Below the pieces are notes generated by a model. It did no database searches and had not been told where the DNA came from. It was given only the letters and a program-made list of their open reading frames with translations. Source: a virus. From it: DNA of 64,000 bases. The DNA is taken from positions 1,001-65,000 of the IMG/VR virus record IMGVR_UViG_3300028584_000320, one strand, 5' to 3'. Of the stretch, positions 2,989-33,455 are shown in pieces (positions within the stretch are counted from its first letter, which is position 1; each line of letters begins with the position of its first letter). The translations under genes and the position numbers were made by a program.

Positions 2989-3024
2989 GACCCCCACAAA
3001 CTGAGTAGGGGTGTGGGGGTCTAG
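2989..3024 (-). repeat. hairpin repeat after SGNH gene 2 (copy A; 28/36 nt identical to 6330-6365)
   Basis: CTAGACCCCCACACCCCTACTCAGTTTGTGGGGGTC; 10-bp stem GACCCCCACA/TGTGGGGGTC. Confidence 0.8.
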
Positions 3025-4310
3025 GCGGCGTAAGCGGCCAGAGTTTGCAGCGCGGGAAGGACTGCACCCGTCACCCCGACATCGACGGCAGCATCCGTCG
3101 CGTGAATGCCTTCAGTCGTATAGGTTCCGCTTGCGAACAGAGACGGCGTGGAGACGCTTTGGAGCACGCCTCCAAAGTTGATCGAGATGATGTTCGGGCC
3201 TGACAGCGCCATGAACTCAGCGTTGAGTGCTTGGCGGATTGTGTCGTCCGTATATCCCGGAAGCGTGTTGCCCGCATTGGTTCGCGGAATGGCGCTCACG
3301 GGCATGAAGATCACGCCCCGCTGGGCGCACAAATCCATCACGCGATACGCCCGGTTCTTCGCGGCCAAGGCGACGCTTGCCGTCATGTCCCCGTCGTTTG
3401 GAGAGCTGATATTGTAAGCCAGTGCCGTGGGGGAGTTGACGAACTGACCTGCGGCGTCCTTCAGCAGCAGGTAGTCAAGGGCGCGCTGGAAATAGGTAAG
3501 CGTCGTTTCGCCTGCGCGCGAGTGGTTCGACACCACAAGCGGAACAGATGGCGTCGAGACCTGGTATGCCGCCCGATGGAACTGCGAGAAGGTTTCCGCC
3601 GTTAGGGCCGAGCCTTCGGCGATAGAGTCCCCGAAAACGGCCATGCTGACTTGCGGAACCGCTGCCCTGTATTCGACAGCGATGATGGGAGACGTTGCGA
3701 AAAATGCCGTCACAGACCATCCAGCCGCAGAGGTTGCTAAACCATTGCTGCCTCTAGATGAAGCATCGAACCGTCCAGCGAGGGCCGCATTTCCCGATGC
3801 CCAGTATCCAGAAGATGTGCCCATAAAGTTTGCGCTGAACGCCAGCGCGCTTGTGCTGGGGTCAACCCGCGCGATCAGTAGGGGTAGCGTCCCGCCATCC
3901 GTTCGCGCGATGCTCGAAAGCGGCATCCAGTCAGACCAGCGAAGGGTTGGGCGACTGGCAGCGGCAGCGGCCGGGATGGTGACTGATGTTGCGCCATCCC
4001 ACGTCACCGCTACCATGACGCCGGTCGAGGGGTTGATATCCGCCGATGCGCCCGTCACGCCAACGCCGCCCGCAGAGATCAAGGCGGCGTTGGCGGGGTC
4101 AGCATTTCCAACCAGCACGCGCACGGCTGAAAACGGCGCTTCGGCCGTCATCACCCTCTGGTACGTGCGGTTGTTGAAGTTCCCCACCGGCGTGAGAACA
4201 GCGCAGCGGCCATCGGAGGCTTGAGGTGCGCTCGTGCGCTTCGGGATGCCGACATTCAATTGCTCGCGCATATAGACGCGGTCTGCCGCGATGGCGGTGT
4301 TCAGAGTCAT
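3021..4310 (-). CDS. SGNH/GDSL hydrolase-domain protein (module 2)
   Basis: Block I VFGDSIAEG, N in SSPND, terminal EGIHAT; beta-rich N-terminal half. Confidence 0.8.
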   Translation of the reverse strand: MTLNTAIAADRVYMREQLNVGIPKRTSAPQASDGRCAVLTPVGNFNNRTYQRVMTAEAPFSAVRVLVGNADPANAALISAGGVGVTGASADINPSTGVMVAVTWDGATSVTIPAAAAASRPTLRWSDWMPLSSIARTDGGTLPLLIARVDPSTSALAFSANFMGTSSGYWASGNAALAGRFDASSRGSNGLATSAAGWSVTAFFATSPIIAVEYRAAVPQVSMAVFGDSIAEGSALTAETFSQFHRAAYQVSTPSVPLVVSNHSRAGETTLTYFQRALDYLLLKDAAGQFVNSPTALAYNISSPNDGDMTASVALAAKNRAYRVMDLCAQRGVIFMPVSAIPRTNAGNTLPGYTDDTIRQALNAEFMALSGPNIISINFGGVLQSVSTPSLFASGTYTTEGIHATDAAVDVGVTGAVLPALQTLAAYAA

Positions 4311-4624
4311 TGCGGCCTCGCGGGGCTGATGGCGCGCTGGGTGCTAAAAACCCAAGGCTGGCCGTTGGTGGTCCAGATGTTGCCCCCCCCACCCGTACTT
4401 AGGGCGATGGTGAACCTGTGCATGTCCTGGTGGCCAAGACGGTACAGAGCATCCTGGACCTCATGGTAAAGCACGTGGTTCAGAGAGTTGCGGTCGAAGG
4501 CGTCCGTACCAGGTCCATCATGATAGAATGAACTGATGTTTGTGTGGCCTTCAGGAAGCACATCACCGTGCTCCTGAATGACTATGCTTCTATCTGAAGG
4601 CCTAAAGGCCATTTGATAATACAC
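4307..4624 (-). CDS. small conserved protein, paralog of 7804-8184
   Basis: Aligns with 7804-8184 over about 80 aa (YQ.A.R.SDR..V.QE.G...P......S.FYHDG.G.D......L.HVL.HEVQ..LY.LG.Q.M...TI...TGGG); ATGA overlap with SGNH gene. Confidence 0.85.
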   Translation of the reverse strand: MYYQMAFRPSDRSIVIQEHGDVLPEGHTNISSFYHDGPGTDAFDRNSLNHVLYHEVQDALYRLGHQDMHRFTIALSTGGGGNIWTTNGQPWVFSTQRAISPARPQ

Positions 4625-4634
4625 AGTTTGATCC

Positions 4635-6248
4635 TTAGCCTCGGTAAAGCGGTCCGCGAATGGTGATAATGCTTCTCTTGGAATTTGGATAGGTACAAAT
4701 CAAAGAGTGAGACCAGCTCGAAGGGCTGTCTGCATTGTATCCTTGGTTCATAAGACCGCAGAGACCAGCAGAGAATACACCGTCCAGGATGCCAGCTGTG
4801 TGGTCGTGGGCTTTGTTCATTTTCATGGCGACTTTGGTCAGAGCCATGGAAGATCCCCTGGCTCCGTTGGGACCTTTGTCGCCGTGGTAGATGTTCTCGA
4901 TCGGGCTGGTGTCCCGGCAGATCAGGAACGAGGCTTCCCGGGGCGGGAAGGCGATGTCTTTCAGGCCGGCAGCATCATGTTGCGCCAAAGCCCATTGAAC
5001 GACATCGAAGCCTGAGTTGCCTTCTTCGACAGCTCCGTAGAGAGCGTCGTTAGCCTGGAACCAAAGACGAGCATTTACCTCATCTAGGCGAGGATCAGCT
5101 TCTCTGAGCCAGCGAGGAAACGCATCGTTGTGGTTTGAAGGGATGACTGCTGTCTCACAGAAGTCTCTTGATATGGCTCTCAGGAACCTTGAGCCCTTGA
5201 TGAAGGCCTTCTGTATGGATCCTCCAGTCGACATAAGCGTCTGAAAGCGGAAAAGATGGTCGCCTCTGCGATGGTGATTGCGGTCCGCAAAGTCGATCAA
5301 GTCGTGGATGAATTGGTATTTGGGCTGCAGATGGTCGATGAGACCATCAGTAACCTTCTCCATGCTGTCAGCGTCGACGCCCCAGATGACCTTGGTGACG
5401 ACTGGATCCACTTTCTCGATGTGAACGTCGCCAGGGGTGATGGCCTCGACACGATGGCCTCTGGTGACGACGCCGGCGTTAGTCTGGGCGTCTAGATCCT
5501 GGAACGATCCATCTTCAGTGCCGCTGATCTGCCTGCAGAACACCACGCCATCGGGTGTGACCTCGACGATCGTGGCTCCGAAGACATGATGGAACTCGGC
5601 TTTGAGTCCGGCTTTCTTGGCCACGTAGTTGGGCACCGTACAGGCGCCTGTGGTCATCAGCATGGCTGGGTGACGAGTGAAGTGGTTTGGTACTGAGACC
5701 AGTTGGACCTTGGCGTGGGGGAACACGCCCCAGGCTCCTTGGGTGTAGGTGTCCAGGCCGGAGAGAGGCCTCACCGCGGTCGGCAAAGTGTTCATCTCAG
5801 CGCAGAACACGATGTCAGGACCCAGCTGGACTCGATCGTGGCGCATGAAGGGCTGGACTTCGCTAGCGAAGACAGCGGACCTGGCTGCGTGGTCCTCGAA
5901 CAGGCCCTTTTGGTAGGTGAAGCCTCCGACGATGACCTGGGCACCAATGTCGTGGGCGTAGGCTTGGAGGTTGTGCCAGAAGGGCAGGAACACGCTGGTA
6001 TTGTCTTGGGCTGAAGTCAGGATGAACCTGGCTGTCTTGCCGGCGACTGAGGTGTTCTTTCTATTGGTTCCGCGGATAGCAGCGTCTCGTCTGGCTCGAG
6101 CTCCTGCAATGGCATGATCTACTGCTGAGTTGTGTACGCCAAGATGTTTGGCGGCTTTTCTATGGGAACCGTGTTCCCTTACAGCTTGTAGGTAGACTCT
6201 CTGACGATCTGTGGCGTATTCGATAAGCACTTCATTAAGGTCAGGCAT
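4635..6248 (-). CDS. calcineurin-like metallophosphoesterase with N-terminal HTH
   Basis: Motifs GDVH, HDLID, SNHN, YHGD, AHDH; N-terminal GSHRKAAKHLGVHNSAV helix-turn-helix. Confidence 0.75.
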   Translation of the reverse strand: MPDLNEVLIEYATDRQRVYLQAVREHGSHRKAAKHLGVHNSAVDHAIAGARARRDAAIRGTNRKNTSVAGKTARFILTSAQDNTSVFLPFWHNLQAYAHDIGAQVIVGGFTYQKGLFEDHAARSAVFASEVQPFMRHDRVQLGPDIVFCAEMNTLPTAVRPLSGLDTYTQGAWGVFPHAKVQLVSVPNHFTRHPAMLMTTGACTVPNYVAKKAGLKAEFHHVFGATIVEVTPDGVVFCRQISGTEDGSFQDLDAQTNAGVVTRGHRVEAITPGDVHIEKVDPVVTKVIWGVDADSMEKVTDGLIDHLQPKYQFIHDLIDFADRNHHRRGDHLFRFQTLMSTGGSIQKAFIKGSRFLRAISRDFCETAVIPSNHNDAFPRWLREADPRLDEVNARLWFQANDALYGAVEEGNSGFDVVQWALAQHDAAGLKDIAFPPREASFLICRDTSPIENIYHGDKGPNGARGSSMALTKVAMKMNKAHDHTAGILDGVFSAGLCGLMNQGYNADSPSSWSHSLICTYPNSKRSIITIRGPLYRG

Positions 6249-6329
6249 TATTTAACCTTCGGCCTTACTTAAACTTGTCGCAGATTCGTACTGGTATTTG
6301 GTTCTGTGTGGGTGAGGGGATGCCGGATG

Positions 6330-6365
6330 CACCCCCACAAAATATACTGGGGTGAGGGGGTCTAG
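6330..6365 (-). repeat. hairpin repeat after SGNH gene 1 (copy B)
   Basis: CTAGACCCCCTCACCCCAGTATATTTTGTGGGGGTG, same position relative to the TAG stop as copy A. Confidence 0.8.
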
Positions 6366-7804
6366 GCGACCATGTCGAGAAGCGTATCGGCAACCCTTGA
6401 GGCGGCCATTTTTGCCCATTGGTCTTGGCCGAACTGGTGCATGTGATTGCCGTCGCCAACGGCCAGCCAATTAGTCCCGGTCGGCAACCAATTCTCCGAG
6501 ACGTTCTCGATATACCTCGTTCGATCCTGCCCGTCTGCGGCGAGGAAACCTGCCTGAATGCTCTGCGAGAGGGTAATGACCCCGGCGCTGCTACCCACGA
6601 CAGGGCCGATGCCCACAATGTATGCGCTGGGCCTCGCGGCTCGGATCGCATTCAGGGTGTCGGCCACCTTGTTCGTCAAGGTGGTGCCAGAGGTGTCGTT
6701 CTGCGAGCCTATAAACAGATAAATATCTGCTTCCGCATCAATGAAATCTTGCACCCGGTTTGGGTGACTCCAGGCAGCAGCGTTACTAACTGTAACATTC
6801 CACCCCGTGGAGCCTTGCGCAGTAATGAGCGCTTGATCACACAGGCCGAGCATTTGCGCGATCCGCAGGCCGATATGTCCGCCTGCATAGCCGAGATAAG
6901 TTCCAGCCTGTATGCTGTCGCCTATGACGCATATTTTCGGCATATCAACCGGGATTGGATCTTCATAGATTTTGTATCCGGTAGGTAGGACTAGACCCCT
7001 AAGCTCAAGACCTCCATGCCATACGAGTTCAACGCGCCGCATATTGCGCGTTGTTCCGTAGTTCTCATACGCTGGGAACGTCAGCTGAAGGCCAGTTCCC
7101 GACCCGGTTGTTGCTGTCTGTAATTGAGTGAGGCCGAGCGGGTTTGAGTTCATTGCGCCGCGATCTAGGGGCGTTACCGCCGTGACCACGCCTCCGGTGA
7201 CCGCTCGCACCCTGACCGTCAGCCCAGTACCGGTCACGCCAGACGGTATGAGCGTGACTATGTCCCCGATTGCGTGGGAGGAGCCACCAGATACCACGGT
7301 CGGAGCTTCGCTAGCGTAGCCAAAAGCATCAGTATTGCTTCCAAAATTGAATTGGAGATATCGAAAATTATTAAAGGCGATGGGAGCGTATTTATAATCG
7401 TCATACGCCAACTCACCATCGACCATCAGACCCATGCGTGAGGACTGACCCTCATAGACGCACGCCTCAAATGCTGGAGCGTCCGTAAGGAAGCGAACGC
7501 GAAACGGGCAGTTCCCGCCAGTCTTCGTCCCGTCAATGCCTGTGATATGCTTTCCCTCGCCGCCTTGACTGTCTGCGGTTAGCGGCGCTCCTGCAACATT
7601 GATCAGCGGGCTATTCCAGAGGTAGGTAACGGCCCCTCCGCTTTTTGTTCCGTCGACAACGCTGGTAGCCCCAGCACTGACTGAGCAAGTGGGTGGAGAG
7701 GCCATCGTCGCCGCAGGTAGCTGCAAGCCATCAAAGGATTGCGCCCAACGACGGACCTTGTCGGCGTTGTAGTTTGAGGCGGTAATCAGACGAGGAGCGA
7801 GCAT
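6362..7804 (-). CDS. SGNH/GDSL hydrolase-domain protein (module 1)
   Basis: VIGDSIQAG, QGSTG, GSQND, DGNHMH blocks; Gly/Thr-rich beta-rich central region. Confidence 0.85.
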   Translation of the reverse strand: MLAPRLITASNYNADKVRRWAQSFDGLQLPAATMASPPTCSVSAGATSVVDGTKSGGAVTYLWNSPLINVAGAPLTADSQGGEGKHITGIDGTKTGGNCPFRVRFLTDAPAFEACVYEGQSSRMGLMVDGELAYDDYKYAPIAFNNFRYLQFNFGSNTDAFGYASEAPTVVSGGSSHAIGDIVTLIPSGVTGTGLTVRVRAVTGGVVTAVTPLDRGAMNSNPLGLTQLQTATTGSGTGLQLTFPAYENYGTTRNMRRVELVWHGGLELRGLVLPTGYKIYEDPIPVDMPKICVIGDSIQAGTYLGYAGGHIGLRIAQMLGLCDQALITAQGSTGWNVTVSNAAAWSHPNRVQDFIDAEADIYLFIGSQNDTSGTTLTNKVADTLNAIRAARPSAYIVGIGPVVGSSAGVITLSQSIQAGFLAADGQDRTRYIENVSENWLPTGTNWLAVGDGNHMHQFGQDQWAKMAASRVADTLLDMVA

Positions 7805-8184
7805 TATGCGGCCTCCATCAGATATGCGCCGTCGTCGTCCGTCAGGATCGCGCCGTCGCTGTCAGTGAGAAAGATGAAGCCAGCAGGCACCCCCCCACCC
7901 GTGTCTCGGGTGATGGTGACGGCTTGCATATTCTGTTCTCCAAGCTTGTAGAGAACCTCTTGCACTTCGTGGAACAGCACATGACTAAGTGCGTAACTGC
8001 TGATCATGTCAGCACCACCGCCGTCATGATAGAAGTCGCTGATTTTGGTGTAGGTCTCGGGAATACTCTCACCGTATTCCTGGACGACTACGTTCCTGTC
8101 TGAAGCCCGGTAGGCTAGCTGATAGCGCATACTATCCGTTCTTCTTAAAAGAAAGAGAGCCAGTATCTGCTGGATAGCAGACAC
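7804..8184 (-). CDS. small conserved protein, paralog of 4307-4624, acidic C-terminal tail
   Basis: GTG start with GAGGGAG SD (alternative ATG at 8130); TAATG overlap with SGNH gene; tail LTDSDGAILTDDDGAYL. Confidence 0.85.
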   Translation of the reverse strand: MSAIQQILALFLLRRTDSMRYQLAYRASDRNVVVQEYGESIPETYTKISDFYHDGGGADMISSYALSHVLFHEVQEVLYKLGEQNMQAVTITRDTGGGVPAGFIFLTDSDGAILTDDDGAYLMEAA

Positions 8185-8233: not shown

Positions 8234-8374
8234 CTAAGACAATGCGTAGTTAGCCTGAGCAATGTCTTGATAGAGGCTTGGGTCCACTTTGCCGACACCA
8301 ACAGGACGTTGAACAATCTGCGAGACCAGGTAACTAAGCATGTCGCTTTTGGCGATCAGCTGGAGCTGCAGATT
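8234..8374 (-). pseudogene. displaced remnant of the RNAP2 3' end (46 codons + TAG)
   Basis: Translates NLQLQLIAKSDMLSYLVSQIVQRPVGVGKVDPSLYQDIAQANYALS*, 28/46 identical to the last 46 aa of RNAP2. Confidence 0.9.
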
Positions 8375-9092
8375 GTCAGGTCCCATGGCGAGCTGTGAAG
8401 CCGTACTTCGCTTCGGCGTTTTTGCGAGCAGCTACTGCGTCTTCGAGGAGGCAGAAGTAACCTAGTGGAACCGCCACCTTGTTCACGTTTAGGGTTGCTC
8501 GCCACTTATTACAATTTTCCGCCCATGTAACGCCAGAGCAGCCGCTTAGATTGTTTATGTACTTGCGTTTATTCTGCATGTTACCTGACACGGTTTTGCT
8601 TATGACATTGTCAGGCGTGTTTTCGGTTTTATTTCCGTTGTCGTGATCCACGTTGTCTGGGTCAACACCATGGATCATTTTATATATGATCCGATGTACC
8701 AAATATTTTACCCCGTCTAGGCACACTCTAAGATAACCGTCGTTTGTCAGCCTGCCGGCGGTTGTTAGAGCGTAGCGATTATTCCATAGGTTTGCGGTGT
8801 GTTCAGCTGACCTATACCCAGTTTCTTTAAAATGACTTGTTGGCCGCGTTTTCCAGGTAAGCCCTCCTGTCAAGGGCTCGTAGCGGAACGCTGATACAAG
8901 GTATTCCCTGCTGGGGAGTTGTATTGCTTTGCGGGGCACTTGAGAACATCCTCAGCTAAGTGCGTAATTTGCTTCTGGAATAATTTTCCAGAGCGTTTCA
9001 TCAATCTTACTCACGGTAATAGCTCTGCCAACTATTTGAGATACCAAATATGACAGCAGGTCAGACTTAGCGATCGAAGACAGTTGGTTTAC
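8375..9092 (-). mobile_element. homing-endonuclease cassette (replacement RNAP2 tail + HNH-AP2 gene)
   Basis: AT-rich 718-bp block; removing it fuses RNAP2 codon TAC (9095-9093) in frame to the remnant at 8374. Confidence 0.8.
8376..8939 (-). CDS. HNH homing endonuclease with AP2-like C-terminal domain
   Basis: YLVHRIIYKM..VDHDNGNKTENTPDN HNH core; SGCSGVTW..KWRA..LGYF..EDAVAARKNAE AP2 domain. Confidence 0.9.
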   Translation of the reverse strand: MPRKAIQLPSREYLVSAFRYEPLTGGLTWKTRPTSHFKETGYRSAEHTANLWNNRYALTTAGRLTNDGYLRVCLDGVKYLVHRIIYKMIHGVDPDNVDHDNGNKTENTPDNVISKTVSGNMQNKRKYINNLSGCSGVTWAENCNKWRATLNVNKVAVPLGYFCLLEDAVAARKNAEAKYGFTARHGT

Positions 9093-10163
9093 GTACTGCC
9101 GGCGCAGGTCATTGCCGTAGTGGGGCAAGCACCTGAAGCAGTCATGGACCGAGATGACCTTGAACGGCTTCTCAGGCAGACTGTTGATGAGCTCCAGGAC
9201 CACATCAGCATCGATCAGTCCGACGTTCTGTTCGTCGATGACGTCAAGGATGCGGGCAGATAGATATCCGCTGGCTCGATAGTGATCCCACAGCTTTCCG
9301 AGAAGGATGTCTTTAGGACGATCGATCCGTCGGTCAGAAGCAGCTCCGTGGCTGCTGAGAGCTGCTCGGACGTTAGCGATTTGAGCAGGGTCGTAATCAC
9401 ATCGTCTGGACATTTCACGGACGATCATCCCGTCGACTGAGTGAATGGTATTGGCGCCGAGTGACCGGCCACCTTCGGTAGGTGCGTTGACCTTGTAAGG
9501 AACCTCATAGGGCACGTCCATAAAATGGACGGTATCGACCACCCGGCTCATGACCTTGACGTGGACGTGGAAGTTGTCCGGAAGGATCCAGTCATGGCTC
9601 AGGGCATCGGGGTTCCACATGGTCAGGAACGCTTCGTTGAGCTCCCAGGCTCCTGGAGCCAGGTCGGTCATGGTTTGGTAGAAGGTGTCGAGCAGAGCCC
9701 CTTCACCGAACACTTTTCTTGGCATTGCGGTGGAACCATAGAGGGCAGTCATCACTGCCATTTTTGTCTGCTCCGCGGTCACATTGGCGGTTCCGCCTGT
9801 GCGGTTCAGCATCTCTTGATAGATGCCCCAATAGGCGTTCTCACGATTCCCGGTGTCGACGACATTGCACAGCTGGGCAGCCAGACGATCGCCAGTGAGA
9901 GCAGCGAGCAGCTGCAGGCCCGAAGCCGTGCCATCCAGGCTGATCATGTAGCCGATGGGCTTGCCCTTCTGGACATCACGCCAGGCTTTGACGCCGGCGT
10001 AATAAAGGGCAGGTTCCTTGGCCTGCTGGATCATGTCTTCCAGCCCCAGCTCGTGCTGGTCGAACCAAGAGAGACGTTCAGCCCAGGTCTTCTTGTCGAG
10101 GCCGAAGTTGCTAGCGATGTCGATCTTGAGATATTCGCGGCCGGTGAAGGTTTCGAAAGCCAT
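8952..10163 (-). CDS. N4 RNA polymerase II subunit 2 (RNAP2, gp16-like)
   Basis: T7-type motif A SLDGTASGLQ, motif B KMAVMTALYGS, motif C SVHDCF. Confidence 0.95.
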   Translation of the reverse strand: MAFETFTGREYLKIDIASNFGLDKKTWAERLSWFDQHELGLEDMIQQAKEPALYYAGVKAWRDVQKGKPIGYMISLDGTASGLQLLAALTGDRLAAQLCNVVDTGNRENAYWGIYQEMLNRTGGTANVTAEQTKMAVMTALYGSTAMPRKVFGEGALLDTFYQTMTDLAPGAWELNEAFLTMWNPDALSHDWILPDNFHVHVKVMSRVVDTVHFMDVPYEVPYKVNAPTEGGRSLGANTIHSVDGMIVREMSRRCDYDPAQIANVRAALSSHGAASDRRIDRPKDILLGKLWDHYRASGYLSARILDVIDEQNVGLIDADVVLELINSLPEKPFKVISVHDCFRCLPHYGNDLRRQYVNQLSSIAKSDLLSYLVSQIVGRAITVSKIDETLWKIIPEANYALS

Positions 10164-23619: not shown

Positions 23620-24315
23620 ATGGACGTCACTGAACTGTATCGTCGACTCGCACTTGGTGAGCTTTCCAACCTGGCCATGGCAGAGGGAGGTGTGATCTCC
23701 GAGACCAAGAAGGCAACGGTGATCCTTCACGCCAACGAGGCGCTCAACCATCTGCACATTCGCTTCCTGCTGAAGGAAGCCACGCTCATTGTCGAACAGA
23801 GCACAGACCGGACCAACTATCCGCTGGATAGCCGCTATGCGATGACGAACGTGGACGTGGGCAACACTCTGCCGCGGTTCATCAATGATCTGAGCAAGCC
23901 CTTCACTGACGACGTCATCAAGGCGATGTCTGTTTATGACGGCACCGGCGACAAGCTCCCAATGAACGACCCCAACGCTTTCAACAGCGTCTTCACGCCG
24001 CTGCCGGCAGTCCTGCAGGTTCCTCACCCCAGCGAGGACCAGCCACTCGGTGTGGTCTACCAGGCAGCACACCCCAAGCTTTCAGTCTCCACCCCTGCTC
24101 AGGTGCTGGAGTTGCCTGAGTTCTTCTCAGGAGCGCTGACTGCGTACATCGCTTACAAAGTGTTCTGTCAGATGAACACGCAAGAGAACACTGCAAAAGG
24201 GGCCGAGCATCTTCGGACATACGAGTCAATTTGCATTGAAGCGGCGGAACAAGACTTGGTAACTACCTACGTGTCTGCGGCTAGCACTCGCTTTGCAAAC
24301 AATGGTTGGGTCTAG
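23620..24315 (+). CDS. virion head-tail adaptor protein (N4 gp67-like)
   Basis: 231 aa, synteny after terL, LALGELSNL N-terminus. Confidence 0.75.
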   Translation: MDVTELYRRLALGELSNLAMAEGGVISETKKATVILHANEALNHLHIRFLLKEATLIVEQSTDRTNYPLDSRYAMTNVDVGNTLPRFINDLSKPFTDDVIKAMSVYDGTGDKLPMNDPNAFNSVFTPLPAVLQVPHPSEDQPLGVVYQAAHPKLSVSTPAQVLELPEFFSGALTAYIAYKVFCQMNTQENTAKGAEHLRTYESICIEAAEQDLVTTYVSAASTRFANNGWV

Positions 24316-24317
24316 GT

Positions 24318-26534
24318 ATGGCTTCTGCTCCTCTATTCTGGGATCCAACCGACACGGCTCCTCTTATCGATCGCATGATCGGTGACGAGTACGAGGTCGT
24401 TAAGCGTGTAGGCGAAAACGTCCCAGGGTTCCTGGCCGCACTCGCTCTCATCGACCTGACGTCCGAGCAGATCATCGCCTTTACCAGCCGCCTGGTGGAG
24501 CTGGAAAATCTTGCTGGCTCCCTGGAAGGCCTGGACACAAGCGGCATCACTGCGCTCATCAACAGCGAGGCTTTGTCTCGTGCCCAAGGCGACGCGGCCC
24601 TGGAACTTCTGATCCAGGCCCTAACCACGGCGGTTGGTCTGAAGGCCGACGCGTCCCTGGCCAATGTCAGCAATGTTACCTTTGCGGCCAAGATCGTTGC
24701 ATCGGGTTACACAGGCGGCGGTGCTGTGTCCTGGGCTGATGTCACTGACAAGCCGGCGTTCGCCACTGCTGCTATCAAGTCCATTTCCGACTTTGGTACG
24801 ATCAACGGCAACGATTCATTCGACAATCAGCCGACATTCACCACCACAGAAGCCAGCCCCTACGCTCGCATCTACCTGCCAGAAGGCACGTTCTATACGA
24901 CCACGGGTCTGACTGATCTGAAGAAGGCCTATTACGGCCCCGGCAAGATCCGGCTGACTGATGGCTCCGTCCTGCCTGGCAAATTTACGACCATCACCGC
25001 GGCGCTCACACCGTACACGACTACCGGCATCACTGGGTTCTTCAGGGGCGACCTGAGCAAGGTCGAGCCTGCCTATTTTAGGATAGAGCCCGGCCTCCGC
25101 ATCGGCCACAGTGAGCGTTACTTCGAGCCCGGCTATATCCCTAAAGTCACTTGGTTCACGCCCTGCGGTGGCTGGTCGGGTCGCTCTGGTCGACTGCAAG
25201 ATCCCGCAGCCATGAACGCGACTGCAATCAAGATCCTGGGCGGCGTCAGTGGCTTTGTGCCCGGTCAGACACTCAAGATCTATGACTTCGCCACGCCCAC
25301 CCTGTTTGACACCATCACGATCTCCCCGGGAGGCGTTGACGCGTCAACGCAGATCGTCAGCTTCACGCCCCCACTCAGCAGGGCCTATGCAGCAAATTCG
25401 TTTGTCACACATGGCAATCGCACCTGGCACGGCAACGACTATGTACACGTCCGTAACTCGGGCGGCGGCGATGCCTATGGTCACATTGTCAGGCTGCAGC
25501 AAAACTACGTTCCGCTCGACAGCCAACTCCACTTCTTCGACACGGCAACGGTCGGGCAGTACGGCGGTGACGTCGTGTTCACCACCCCCGGCACCTACGC
25601 CACCGGCTGGGAAAGCCAGTACATCGACCAAGGCAATGACGTTGCGGTAATCGGGCAGGTGGACAGCTTTGTCCGCAGCGTGGACACCGGCGCCCGCTCC
25701 TGCGTCTGGGTCGGCACCTACCTCAAGAGCGAAGGCACGGCTCCTTGTGATGCGGCCCATGTTGTCGTGGGCGGTTGGCGCATCGGCCTCGACTTCGTTC
25801 GAGGAGACTTCAGCAGCAACGGCCAGGCCGCGATCCAGTTGAAGACCGCCCAGCGTATCTACCTCAATGGCTCAGTGACTAACGCTGGCCGAGGTGGCGA
25901 CCCTGCGGGCATCTATACCCCGTTCTTCGGCAACATCCTTGGCGACACCTGGATCGAGCACAACACGGACGTCACTGGCGCATACGCCGACATCCAGGTT
26001 GGTGCGACTCACAGGCTGAGGATGCGTGCTACCGGCCAATGTACCTGGACCGGAAACCTTAACCTCAGTAACGGCCTCAACGTCAACGCCGGCAACGCCT
26101 CGTTTGCTGGCGAAGTCAACATGGCCACCACCAGGTTTCTGTACCTGAACGGGGCCAACACAGCTTGGCTGACCCACAATGCTGATGTCACCTCTCCATA
26201 CGTAGACCTGGCAGTCAGCGCAACCTATCGACTGCGGATGCGGGGCACAGGGGTTCTGTCCTGGAACGGACAGATGAACATCAGCAACGGCTTGAACGTT
26301 GACGACGGCAACGTCTCTATCAATAAAGAGATAACGCTCGGCGGGAAGCTGACGCTGAACGCTACTGGCGGCACCAGCGGCATCGCCCTGACCGGGTCGC
26401 TTACCGCCACCGACCACGTCACCCTTGCCGGCAAGCTCTTCCTGAACACCGCCCAGACCGCCTGGATCGAGTACAACGGATCAAACGTCCGCGTGACCAA
26501 GAACAGCGGGTCTACTTTCGCGAACCTCGTGTAA
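24318..26534 (+). CDS. tail fibre / receptor-binding protein
   Basis: N4-type anchor (LIDRMIGDEYEVVKRV), coiled coil, beta-rich body, C-terminal 72-aa tandem repeats. Confidence 0.8.
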   Translation: MASAPLFWDPTDTAPLIDRMIGDEYEVVKRVGENVPGFLAALALIDLTSEQIIAFTSRLVELENLAGSLEGLDTSGITALINSEALSRAQGDAALELLIQALTTAVGLKADASLANVSNVTFAAKIVASGYTGGGAVSWADVTDKPAFATAAIKSISDFGTINGNDSFDNQPTFTTTEASPYARIYLPEGTFYTTTGLTDLKKAYYGPGKIRLTDGSVLPGKFTTITAALTPYTTTGITGFFRGDLSKVEPAYFRIEPGLRIGHSERYFEPGYIPKVTWFTPCGGWSGRSGRLQDPAAMNATAIKILGGVSGFVPGQTLKIYDFATPTLFDTITISPGGVDASTQIVSFTPPLSRAYAANSFVTHGNRTWHGNDYVHVRNSGGGDAYGHIVRLQQNYVPLDSQLHFFDTATVGQYGGDVVFTTPGTYATGWESQYIDQGNDVAVIGQVDSFVRSVDTGARSCVWVGTYLKSEGTAPCDAAHVVVGGWRIGLDFVRGDFSSNGQAAIQLKTAQRIYLNGSVTNAGRGGDPAGIYTPFFGNILGDTWIEHNTDVTGAYADIQVGATHRLRMRATGQCTWTGNLNLSNGLNVNAGNASFAGEVNMATTRFLYLNGANTAWLTHNADVTSPYVDLAVSATYRLRMRGTGVLSWNGQMNISNGLNVDDGNVSINKEITLGGKLTLNATGGTSGIALTGSLTATDHVTLAGKLFLNTAQTAWIEYNGSNVRVTKNSGSTFANLV

Positions 26535-32264: not shown

Positions 32265-33455
32265 GTGCTGAACTACAACAACCCCTACGGCGGCACCAAG
32301 TCGGACATCGATGCCGTTGGTTCGACCCAGATGGAGACCTTCTTCCAACTGAAGAAGGCCATCATCACGGCCCGCAAAGACCAGTATTTCATGCCGCTGG
32401 CGTCGACGATCAACATGCCGAAGAACTACGGCAAGACGATCAAGGTCTACGAGTACATTCCTCTGCTCGACGACCGCAACGTCAACGACCAGGGCATCGA
32501 TGCTGCCGGCGCTACGATTACCAACGGCAACCTCTATGGCTCGTCCAAGGACGTCGGCACCATCACCGCGAAGATGCCGACCCTGACTGAAAGCGGTGGC
32601 CGCGTGAACCGCGTCGGTTTCACCCGCGTCCAGCGTGAAGGCTCGATCTTCAAGTTCGGCTTCTACACCGAGTTCACCCAGGAAGCCCTGGACTTCGATA
32701 CCGACTCGGAACTGATGAGCCACCTGGCCACCGAGCTGATGAACGGCGCCGTCCAACTGACGGAAGCTGTTCTGCAGAAGGACCTGCTGGCTGCTGTCGG
32801 TGTCATCGTCTACGCCGGCGCTGCCACCACCAACGGCACTGTGACTGCTGAAGGCGCTACGCCTTCGATCGTCAGCTATGCCAACCTGATGCGTCTGGAT
32901 CAGATCCTGACGGACAACCGCACGCCCAAGCAGACCACGGTGGTCACCGGCTCGCGCCTGGTGGACACCAAGACCCTGCCGGCTGCCCGGGTCATGTTCA
33001 TTGGCTCGGAACTGGTTCCGGTGATCAAGGCTATGAAGGACCTGCACAACGAGCGGGCCTTCATTCCGGTCCAGCGCTACGGCGATGCGGGCACCATCCT
33101 GAACGGCGAAATCGGCACCGTCGATGCGTTCCGCATCGTCCAGGTTCCGGAAATGCTGAACTGGGCTGGTGCAGGCGCCACTGTCAGCACCAACCCCGGC
33201 TATCGGGTCACTGCCGGCAAGTACAACGTCTACCCCATGCTGGTGCTGGGCGAGGACTCGTGGACCACCATCGGTTTCCAGACCGACGGCAAGTCCGTGA
33301 AGTTCGAGGTCATGACCAAGATGCCAGGCAAGGAAACCGCGGATCGCAACGATCCCTACGGTGAGACCGGCTTCAGCTCGATCAAGTGGTACTACGGTAT
33401 CATGATCAAGCGTCCTGAGCGCATGGGTCTGATCAAGACCGTTGCTCCGCTGTAA
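32265..33455 (+). CDS. major capsid protein (N4 gp56-like)
   Basis: 396 aa, strong codon bias, KYGFY.EFTQE-type block, followed by a terminator. Confidence 0.93.

Follow-up and report, generated by a model that had tools for sequence, protein, structure and literature searches.

The window studied here, a stretch of 64,000 nucleotides (positions 1,001 to 65,000 of the IMG/VR virus record IMGVR_UViG_3300028584_000320), covers most of the record of an N4-like (Schitoviridae) virus, 71.8 kb long. The usual N4-like genes are present: the two subunits of RNA polymerase 2 (RNAP2), an AAA ATPase, a VWA protein, the terminase, the portal, the major capsid protein, and a virion RNA polymerase of 3435 amino acids. 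Our subject is a locus on the minus strand, behind RNAP2, where a small protein followed by an esterase of the SGNH family occurs twice. The order of features on that strand is an HNH gene, a leftover RNAP2 C-terminus, small protein 1, esterase SGNH 1, a hairpin, a gene for a protein of 537 amino acids, small protein 2, esterase SGNH 2, and a second hairpin (Table 1).

An earlier, sequence-only reading of this locus described two units, each made of a small protein, an SGNH gene whose start overlaps the stop of the small protein, and a shared hairpin. Both units are indeed there: the junction is TAATG in unit 1 and ATGA in unit 2, and the two hairpins are 82% identical over 38 nucleotides, a pattern found at these two sites only in the window, against 0.05 expected by chance. 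The small proteins were said to be paralogues that diverge after a TGGG linker, and the hydrolases to share the SGNH blocks only, and our comparisons agree. The small proteins are 48% identical over 97 amino acids (E 1e-34), 55% over the first 80, and unrelated past T-G-G-G; the two esterases have no significant BLASTP similarity to each other, and each family keeps its blocks. With respect to sizes, the 105 amino acids given for small protein 2 stand, and the 126 given for small protein 1 are probably 108, because all relatives of the small proteins start at the position of the ATG at 8130. The gene between the units had been taken for a phosphoesterase: it is in fact a T5 A1-like “DNA transfer” protein (phrog_1745, E 4.6e-154), flanked by both units and not part of the module.

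Table 1. Features of the locus, followed by two reference genes, with positions in the window (aa: amino acids)
Feature	Position	Strand	Description
Small protein 1, open reading frame	7804-8184	-	start by homology at ATG 8130, giving 108 aa
Anchor domain, small protein 1	7891-8130	-	80 aa; DI homologue by profile, fold and synteny
Hinge 1	7890-7900	-	GGGTGGGGGGG, encodes G-G-G; left edge of cassette 1
Tail 1	7804-7890	-	28 aa; proposed adaptor peptide
SGNH 1	6362-7804	-	480 aa
Hairpin 1	6331-6368	-	begins at SGNH 1 stop codon
T5 A1-like gene	4635-6248	-	537 aa; N-terminal helix-turn-helix
Small protein 2	4307-4624	-	105 aa; GTG start
Anchor domain, small protein 2	4385-4624	-	80 aa; paralogue of anchor 1, 55% identical
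Hinge 2	4383-4394	-	GGGTGGGGGGGG; left edge of cassette 2, recombination breakpoint
Tail 2	4307-4384	-	25 aa; stop overlaps SGNH 2 start (ATGA)
SGNH 2	3021-4310	-	429 aa
Hairpin 2	2990-3027	-	begins at SGNH 2 stop codon; -18.7 kcal/mol, z -2.8
RNAP2 large subunit	8952-10163	-	
Major capsid protein gene	32265-33455		

The conserved part of the small proteins, which we call the anchor, is found by tblastn as the N-terminus of proteins annotated as capsid decorating or immunoglobulin (Ig)-like in Stenotrophomonas phage Philippe and Burkholderia phage HN01. Each phage encodes it directly after RNAP2, which is the slot of gene 17 in N4. Domain DI of N4 gp17 is the one that contacts the capsid, on the quasi-3-fold axes of the T=9 shell; the protein is proposed to reinforce that shell, and its last Ig domain is flexible and exposed to the solvent (PMC11768535). 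An anchor profile matches the N-terminal domains of two decoration proteins of known structure: Moo19 gp28 (9d7z_J) with E 1.5e-8, or 4e-18 with a deeper alignment, and N4 gp17 (9e99_J) with E 7e-5, then 2e-11. The AlphaFold2 model of small protein 1, with a mean predicted local distance difference test (pLDDT) of 86.9, was compared with the whole PDB, and its significant matches are N4 gp17 and Moo19 gp28 only (probability 1.00, root mean square deviation 2.6-3.0 over about 88 columns). Small protein 1 also occupies the gp17 slot after RNAP2, with the HNH insertion between, and small protein 2 lies farther off, beyond the A1-like gene. Homology between domain DI and the 80 residues conserved in the two small proteins is thus strongly supported, and profile and fold together establish the anchor homology. 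Binding of these anchor stubs to the capsid is predicted from this kinship.

What follows DI in the small proteins is not an Ig-like domain: past the hinge there are 25 to 28 residues and nothing else. An exhaustive profile search yielded 105 cluster representatives of the anchor family, of which 60 have 131-200 amino acids, the size of an anchor with one Ig domain, 9 have 201-350, 6 exceed 350, and 30 have at most 130 and are mostly anchor alone. Ig content is judged here by size, Big_2 being confirmed by Pfam for two of the 69 representatives of 131-350 amino acids. Since the family is mostly of Ig-domain size, the small proteins are gp17 homologues cut down to DI and a short tail. The sequence-only reading had asked whether the small domain always co-occurs with a downstream enzyme: the anchor usually comes with Ig domains and has no enzyme beside it. 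Members of the subtype with an anchor and a short tail have a coupled downstream gene in all five assessable cases, four of them readable as a large protein and the fifth ending after 38 amino acids at the end of its contig.

Some long members of the family carry other domains. One has seven Big_2 stretches. In P0024 (692 amino acids), the anchor and a Pro/Gly linker are followed by a domain of 600 amino acids with structural kin among proteins bearing carbohydrate-binding, dockerin or PA14 modules. In P0088 (583 amino acids), sub-threshold Pfam Ig matches and a reading of the sequence indicate what seems to be an Ig domain, then a BNR-like (Asp-box) region. These two proteins may be covalent versions of the display of enzymes on a capsid. 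Pfam and PHROGs hold no family for P0024, for P0125, or for the tails. Elsewhere, the N4-like contig L005 has tandem anchor paralogues after RNAP2 (4530-5289), one bare, of 76 amino acids, and one of 162 with an Ig domain, so that duplication of the gp17 anchor is recurrent.

We next consider what is inherited together with the tails. Three metagenomic relatives of the phage (L011, L014 and L015) match the A1-like gene and anchor 2 at 84-91% nucleotide identity. The blastn similarity ends in each of them at window positions 4381-4384, in the poly-G hinge ACGGGTG(G/T)GGGGG, and past this hinge the relatives carry different tails and different downstream genes: one has a tail of the hairpin type described below, and another a tail followed by a fibre-like protein of 337 amino acids. 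These breakpoints show directly that cargo is exchanged by recombination at the hinge, and they set the boundaries of the cassettes. Tail 1 is 78% identical to the C-terminus of DMCA_023, a free protein of 47 amino acids encoded in the tail module of Caulobacter phage DMCA, directly upstream of a protein of 477 amino acids with SGNH-like blocks. Similarly, a 75%-identical copy of SGNH 1 stands behind a free peptide of 52 amino acids that has the tail 1 motif, and its contig has no gp17-type anchor upstream. On the strength of these three observations (the hinge breakpoints, the DMCA peptide and the close copy of SGNH 1), the tail goes with the cargo and not with the anchor: tail and cargo form one exchangeable cassette.

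The tail 1 motif is P-A-G-F-x-F-L-x-D-x-D-G...D-G-A-Y-L-x-E-A-A, followed by the stop codon, and forms a conserved two-hairpin peptide; the free peptides, of 47-65 amino acids, end in it. Two DNA-pattern scans of viral contigs, in which the peptide motif ends the reading frame, establish that the pairing of this peptide with a cargo gene is recurrent, with at least ten independent pairs. Among ten pairs, the cargo is SGNH-like in seven and fibre-like in two, and the last (L102) is cut off by the end of the contig. The junction is TAATG in all four pairs in which it was read (the window, L077, L103 and L102); stop and start overlap in most of the others, and in L118 the two genes are 15 nucleotides apart. 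The cargo begins with M-x-T-T-R..S, or with M-L-A-P-R-L-I-T-A-S in the window. In a further case, P0027, an anchor with a hairpin-type tail precedes a protein of a “hydrolase” family (phrog_16653, E 4.9e-82).

The two ends that face each other across the junction are both conserved. In six of ten pairwise comparisons the tails share 67-81% identity, and the enzymes of the phages concerned only 20-29%; the conserved N-terminus of the cargo varies at synonymous sites. It is the pattern to be expected of two short segments that fit each other, and we infer from it that the peptide binds its cargo. Three marks define the module: the motif at the C-terminus of the peptide, the overlap of stop and start, and the cargo N-terminus M-x-x-(T/P)-R-x-x-x-S. 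Unit 1 has all three, and unit 2 has the overlap alone.

Two side observations concern the free peptides. Ahead of several free pairs of peptide and esterase, a beta-rich protein is encoded that has about 95-109 amino acids (L010 3609-3938, L038 271-558 and L019 3680-3982), for which weak matches to phrog_32858 are all that was found, and no informative family. This protein may be the part of the virion that holds the Gly-rich N-terminus of the free peptide. In L019, a phage contig that is not N4-like, two units of small protein and SGNH esterase stand side by side upstream of the terminase (3982-7376), and the peptide of one unit is a divergent repeat (...NDQVVTYNGQVVTYAS).

We now turn to the esterases. 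The family of SGNH 1 (13 sequences) has invariant GDS at 295-297, GSQND at 366-370, D451 and H454; that of SGNH 2 (12 sequences) has invariant G227-D228-S229, N305 and H403, and the acid of its block V, as read from the translation, is Glu and not Asp. Against Pfam Lipase_GDSL_2, SGNH 1 scores 16.8 bits, below the cut-off of 32.9, and SGNH 2 has no Pfam match; homologues of both carry this domain (PF13472). The AlphaFold2 model of SGNH 1 (pLDDT 82) consists of a beta-sandwich, an inserted small beta domain and an SGNH domain, an architecture like that of CE2 esterases: Foldseek aligns it with the CE2 esterase 2waa (E 9.7e-12) and with many SGNH structures. Compared with viral models, it matches phage esterases, including that of Shigella phage Sf12, as well as proteins that go by the name of tail fibre or minor tail protein. 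The family of both proteins and the fold of SGNH 1 are established by these alignments, and both proteins look catalytically competent. The only long segment of SGNH 1 predicted to be disordered is its residues 1-13, with pLDDT below 50. A weak match of SGNH 1 to phrog_9703, called “head decoration” (E 9.3e-5; DMCA_024 matches with E 1.3e-12), is used as a lead only, the source of this name being untraceable.

Other searches returned little. Neither megablast of the whole region nor tblastn of SGNH 1 gave a match in GenBank phages, single-protein scans of viral contigs for either esterase were negative too, and a scan of bacterial genomes gave three distant relatives of SGNH 2 only, with no clue to the host. 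The closest homologue of SGNH 2 is found in two contigs (L033 5001-6284 and L034 2281-3564). Its neighbours there are genes for glycine cleavage, a TetR regulator and ATP synthase, and none is a phage gene. This suggests that a gene like SGNH 2 was recently exchanged between host and phage.

The hinges are exactly where runs of seven and eight G are located. The hinge word GGGTG(G/T)GGGGG is nearly identical to the 3' arm of the hairpins, TGTGGGGGT on the coding strand, so that G-rich words flank each cassette; the hinge of the relative L014 is GGTGTGGGGGT. Such words could provide the microhomology for cassette exchange. After the 75%-identical esterase, in L038, the hairpin is absent, and we thus take it as part of the N4-like backbone. 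Past hairpin 2, a terminator-like hairpin with a T-run can be read by eye near 2915-2950. A fusion of small protein and esterase by frameshift or read-through was considered and rejected: in unit 1, both alternative frames, read by eye, run into stops ahead of the start of SGNH 1; in unit 2, a stop closes the SGNH frame, again ahead of the start of the gene, while the third frame is open and out of frame with SGNH 2.

The sequence-only reading had proposed a modular display, in which a conserved anchor with a variable tail recruits a cognate enzyme. Profile and fold bear out the anchor as gp17 DI; recruitment by the tail is predicted, from indirect evidence. It is natural to conjecture, on these grounds, that the locus serves to display exchangeable, glycan-active cargo non-covalently on the capsid surface, and we put the chances of this explanation at about even. 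By homology, the anchor stub would dock on the capsid as gp17 DI does. The glycine hinge would let the tail, the short peptide found in place of the Ig domains, project, and the tail would hold the cargo non-covalently by its N-terminal strand, as co-inheritance and conservation suggest. For unit 1, the likely contact is the conserved and otherwise disordered N-terminus of the cargo. The tethered cargo, presumably a polysaccharide O-acetyl esterase here and a fibre or another hydrolase in relatives, would, as an esterase, attack the O-acetylated polysaccharide of surfaces that the head encounters, and the two anchor paralogues would place two types of cargo on one head.

A fuller version of this explanation is offered tentatively, the chances being somewhat against it: a portable docking system, in which a two-hairpin peptide of about 27 residues would bind the N-terminal strand (M-x-T-T-R..S) of diverse cargo proteins, be they esterases, fibres or hydrolases, and whatever is fused to the N-terminus of the peptide would set its location in the virion. 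At this locus the fusion partner would be gp17 DI, and the outcome a head display of two specificities, swapped at the hinge.

Several points weigh against head display. The binding of tail and esterase would be argued from co-inheritance and conservation; a complex prediction, run as one job for residues 71-108 of small protein 1 (its tail) together with SGNH 1, had a score of 0.00, or “no answer”, and speaks neither for binding nor against it. Unit 2 is the weak part, argued mostly by analogy: tail 2 has no relatives outside its lineage, P0006 being the sole other copy, and no conserved partner motif was found in this unit. SGNH 2 has its nearest homologue, 58% identical, in the setting of a bacterial chromosome, where that gene stands alone, and the phage homologues of SGNH 2 lie in tail-fibre regions, behind unrelated small proteins of 65-108 amino acids with no visible likeness to tail 2. 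Most members of the anchor family come with Ig domains or with nothing, and a role of DI alone as cement would be sufficient by itself. The same peptide-esterase pair is found in tail modules of other phages, and the esterase family is therefore not intrinsically a family of head proteins. Finally, head display presupposes that a cargo of 50 kDa can fit at the DI sites.

Some of these points are common ground with a different explanation, in which the stubs are minimal, DI-only cement, and the esterases soluble enzymes, produced in the course of infection and absent from the virion, that strip O-acetyl groups from host glycans, for example to prevent the trapping of progeny or to block superinfection; the tail would then be a folding or regulatory partner. 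Anchor-only family members without an enzyme do exist, SGNH 2 has its lone cellular homologue, the genes lie in the middle region and not in the late region, and the sequence-only reading places a third esterase elsewhere in the genome. However, this explanation accounts neither for a breakpoint inside the small reading frame, exactly after the anchor, with each cargo bringing its own tail, nor for a tail far better conserved than the enzymes. The presence of the pair among tail genes in other phages, and the fact that gp17, encoded in the same region, is itself structural, also speak against it, and we consider it unlikely.

There is also the possibility that the peptide-esterase complexes are carried by the virion on its tail, in the manner of G7C gp63.1 and of the tailspikes of Moo19 and B2, the DI-like domain being a generic fusion partner or binding off the shell. 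N4-like phages do use esterase tailspikes (PMC11654681; PMC9569702), the tail fibre and minor tail proteins among the fold matches of SGNH 1 point the same way, and so does the place of the free peptides in tail modules. Nevertheless, the only relatives of the anchor, in sequence and in fold, decorate capsids and touch the major capsid protein with their DI; a separate late gene, for 742 amino acids, holds the position of a tail appendage; and G7C gp63.1 is absent from the 50 PDB fold matches of SGNH 1 that rank best. A tail location is thus quite improbable. Last, it is hardly credible that the split is an artefact or a decay product, an anchor-enzyme fusion broken at the poly-G run by a homopolymer error or a frameshift: the G7 and G8 runs sit exactly at the hinges and covalent anchor-cargo fusions exist in the family, but no alternative frame after the run, read by eye, joins the small frame to the SGNH frame, the layout of two overlapping reading frames is kept in at least ten unrelated contigs, and the tails keep their protein sequence while their DNA shows synonymous changes.

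The surroundings of the locus deserve a few remarks. Between RNAP2 and small protein 1 is inserted an HNH endonuclease gene (8376-8939), followed by a reading frame of 50 codons (8234-8386) that is a diverged repeat of the last 46 or so residues of RNAP2: the region 8234-8939 looks like a homing insertion carrying its own copy of the end of the RNAP2 gene. In the late region, the gene for 742 amino acids (24306-26534), beside the terminase and gp67-like genes and with no PHROG match, is likely to encode a variable tail appendage or receptor-binding protein of the phage. The A1-like protein has tblastn matches in 1132 phage records, the best of them (40-45% identity) in phages of Erythrobacter, Sphingobium, Citromicrobium, Brevundimonas, Rhodobacter and Caulobacter, which hints at an alphaproteobacterial host.

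Head-decoration proteins are usually viewed as cement or as sticky Ig domains. The literature search found no paper linking gp17-type anchors to enzymes. The use of a gp17 DI anchor for this purpose would be new, as would an anchor and a cargo encoded by separate genes and apparently joined by a conserved peptide. The duplicated unit is new as well, and so is the exchange of cassettes at a fixed hinge, visible at the population level. If the display of cargo on the head is real, N4-like phages mount glycan-modifying enzymes there by means of the gp17 anchor, with a small natural tag instead of a fusion. Host-surface recognition or penetration would then have a layer borne by the head, in a family known for tail esterases only. 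Such a display would explain abundant virion esterases that are invisible in icosahedral reconstructions, and it would provide phage display engineering with a minimal natural peptide-cargo pair and a capsid anchor of 80 residues. The module of peptide and cargo is the most interesting part, worth studying wherever it is located, and Caulobacter phage DMCA, which is in culture, makes it accessible to experiment.

Among known systems, the closest on the anchor side are N4 gp17 and Moo19 gp28 (PDB 9E99 and 9D7Z). They share with the small proteins domain DI, by profile and fold, the slot after RNAP2, and the background of an N4-like T=9 capsid. Here, in contrast, some 25-28 amino acids of tail take the place of the Ig-like domains DII and DIII, and the protein occurs as a pair of paralogues, with an enzyme gene coupled to each.

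Also close is the Hoc-like protein of Enterobacter phage PG7, whose 511 residues comprise a capsid-binding domain and a GDSL domain (Fokine et al. 2023; PMC10385173). Both systems associate a head-decoration anchor with an SGNH/GDSL esterase, and display on the head is proposed for both. PG7 does so with one polypeptide and a T4-type anchor, whereas two genes are used here, with a gp17 DI anchor and a conserved peptide as the presumed link.

As for tails, the esterase tailspike gp63.1 of phage G7C attaches through gp66. Other esterase tailspikes of N4-like phages are Moo19 gp82 and B2 gp48/49 (PMC11654681), and the N4-like phage Possum has one too (PMC9569702). What these tailspikes have in common with the present proteins is the phage family and the kind of enzyme: this family uses SGNH enzymes that deacetylate polysaccharides as exchangeable modules of host recognition, borne by the virion, in which the attachment part is conserved and the distal part varies. 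The tailspikes, however, are encoded by late tail genes and use adaptors of the gp66 type, while the genes described here are in the decoration locus, behind a capsid anchor; with respect to gp63.1 in particular, the 50 top-ranked PDB matches to the fold of SGNH 1 showed no similarity to its attachment domain. The free peptides paired with an SGNH protein or a fibre, such as DMCA 023/024, have the same two-hairpin peptide, overlapping junction and cargo N-terminus as unit 1, but a Gly-rich N-terminus of their own, of about 20 amino acids, instead of gp17 DI, and they belong to tail or other structural modules.

Two comparisons concern the enzymes. SGNH 1 resembles the CE2 esterase of Cellvibrio japonicus (PDB 2WAA) in its N-terminal beta-sandwich and C-terminal SGNH domain and in its Ser, His and oxyanion residues; it differs by an extra inserted small beta domain, by its phage context, and by a sequence identity of about 12%. 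In Vibrio phage Peru-2, a GDSL esterase of 473 amino acids is abundant in purified virions and unresolved by cryo-EM (PMC13320782). This state is compatible with flexible tethering, and the likeness of the Peru-2 enzyme to the present proteins is one of description.

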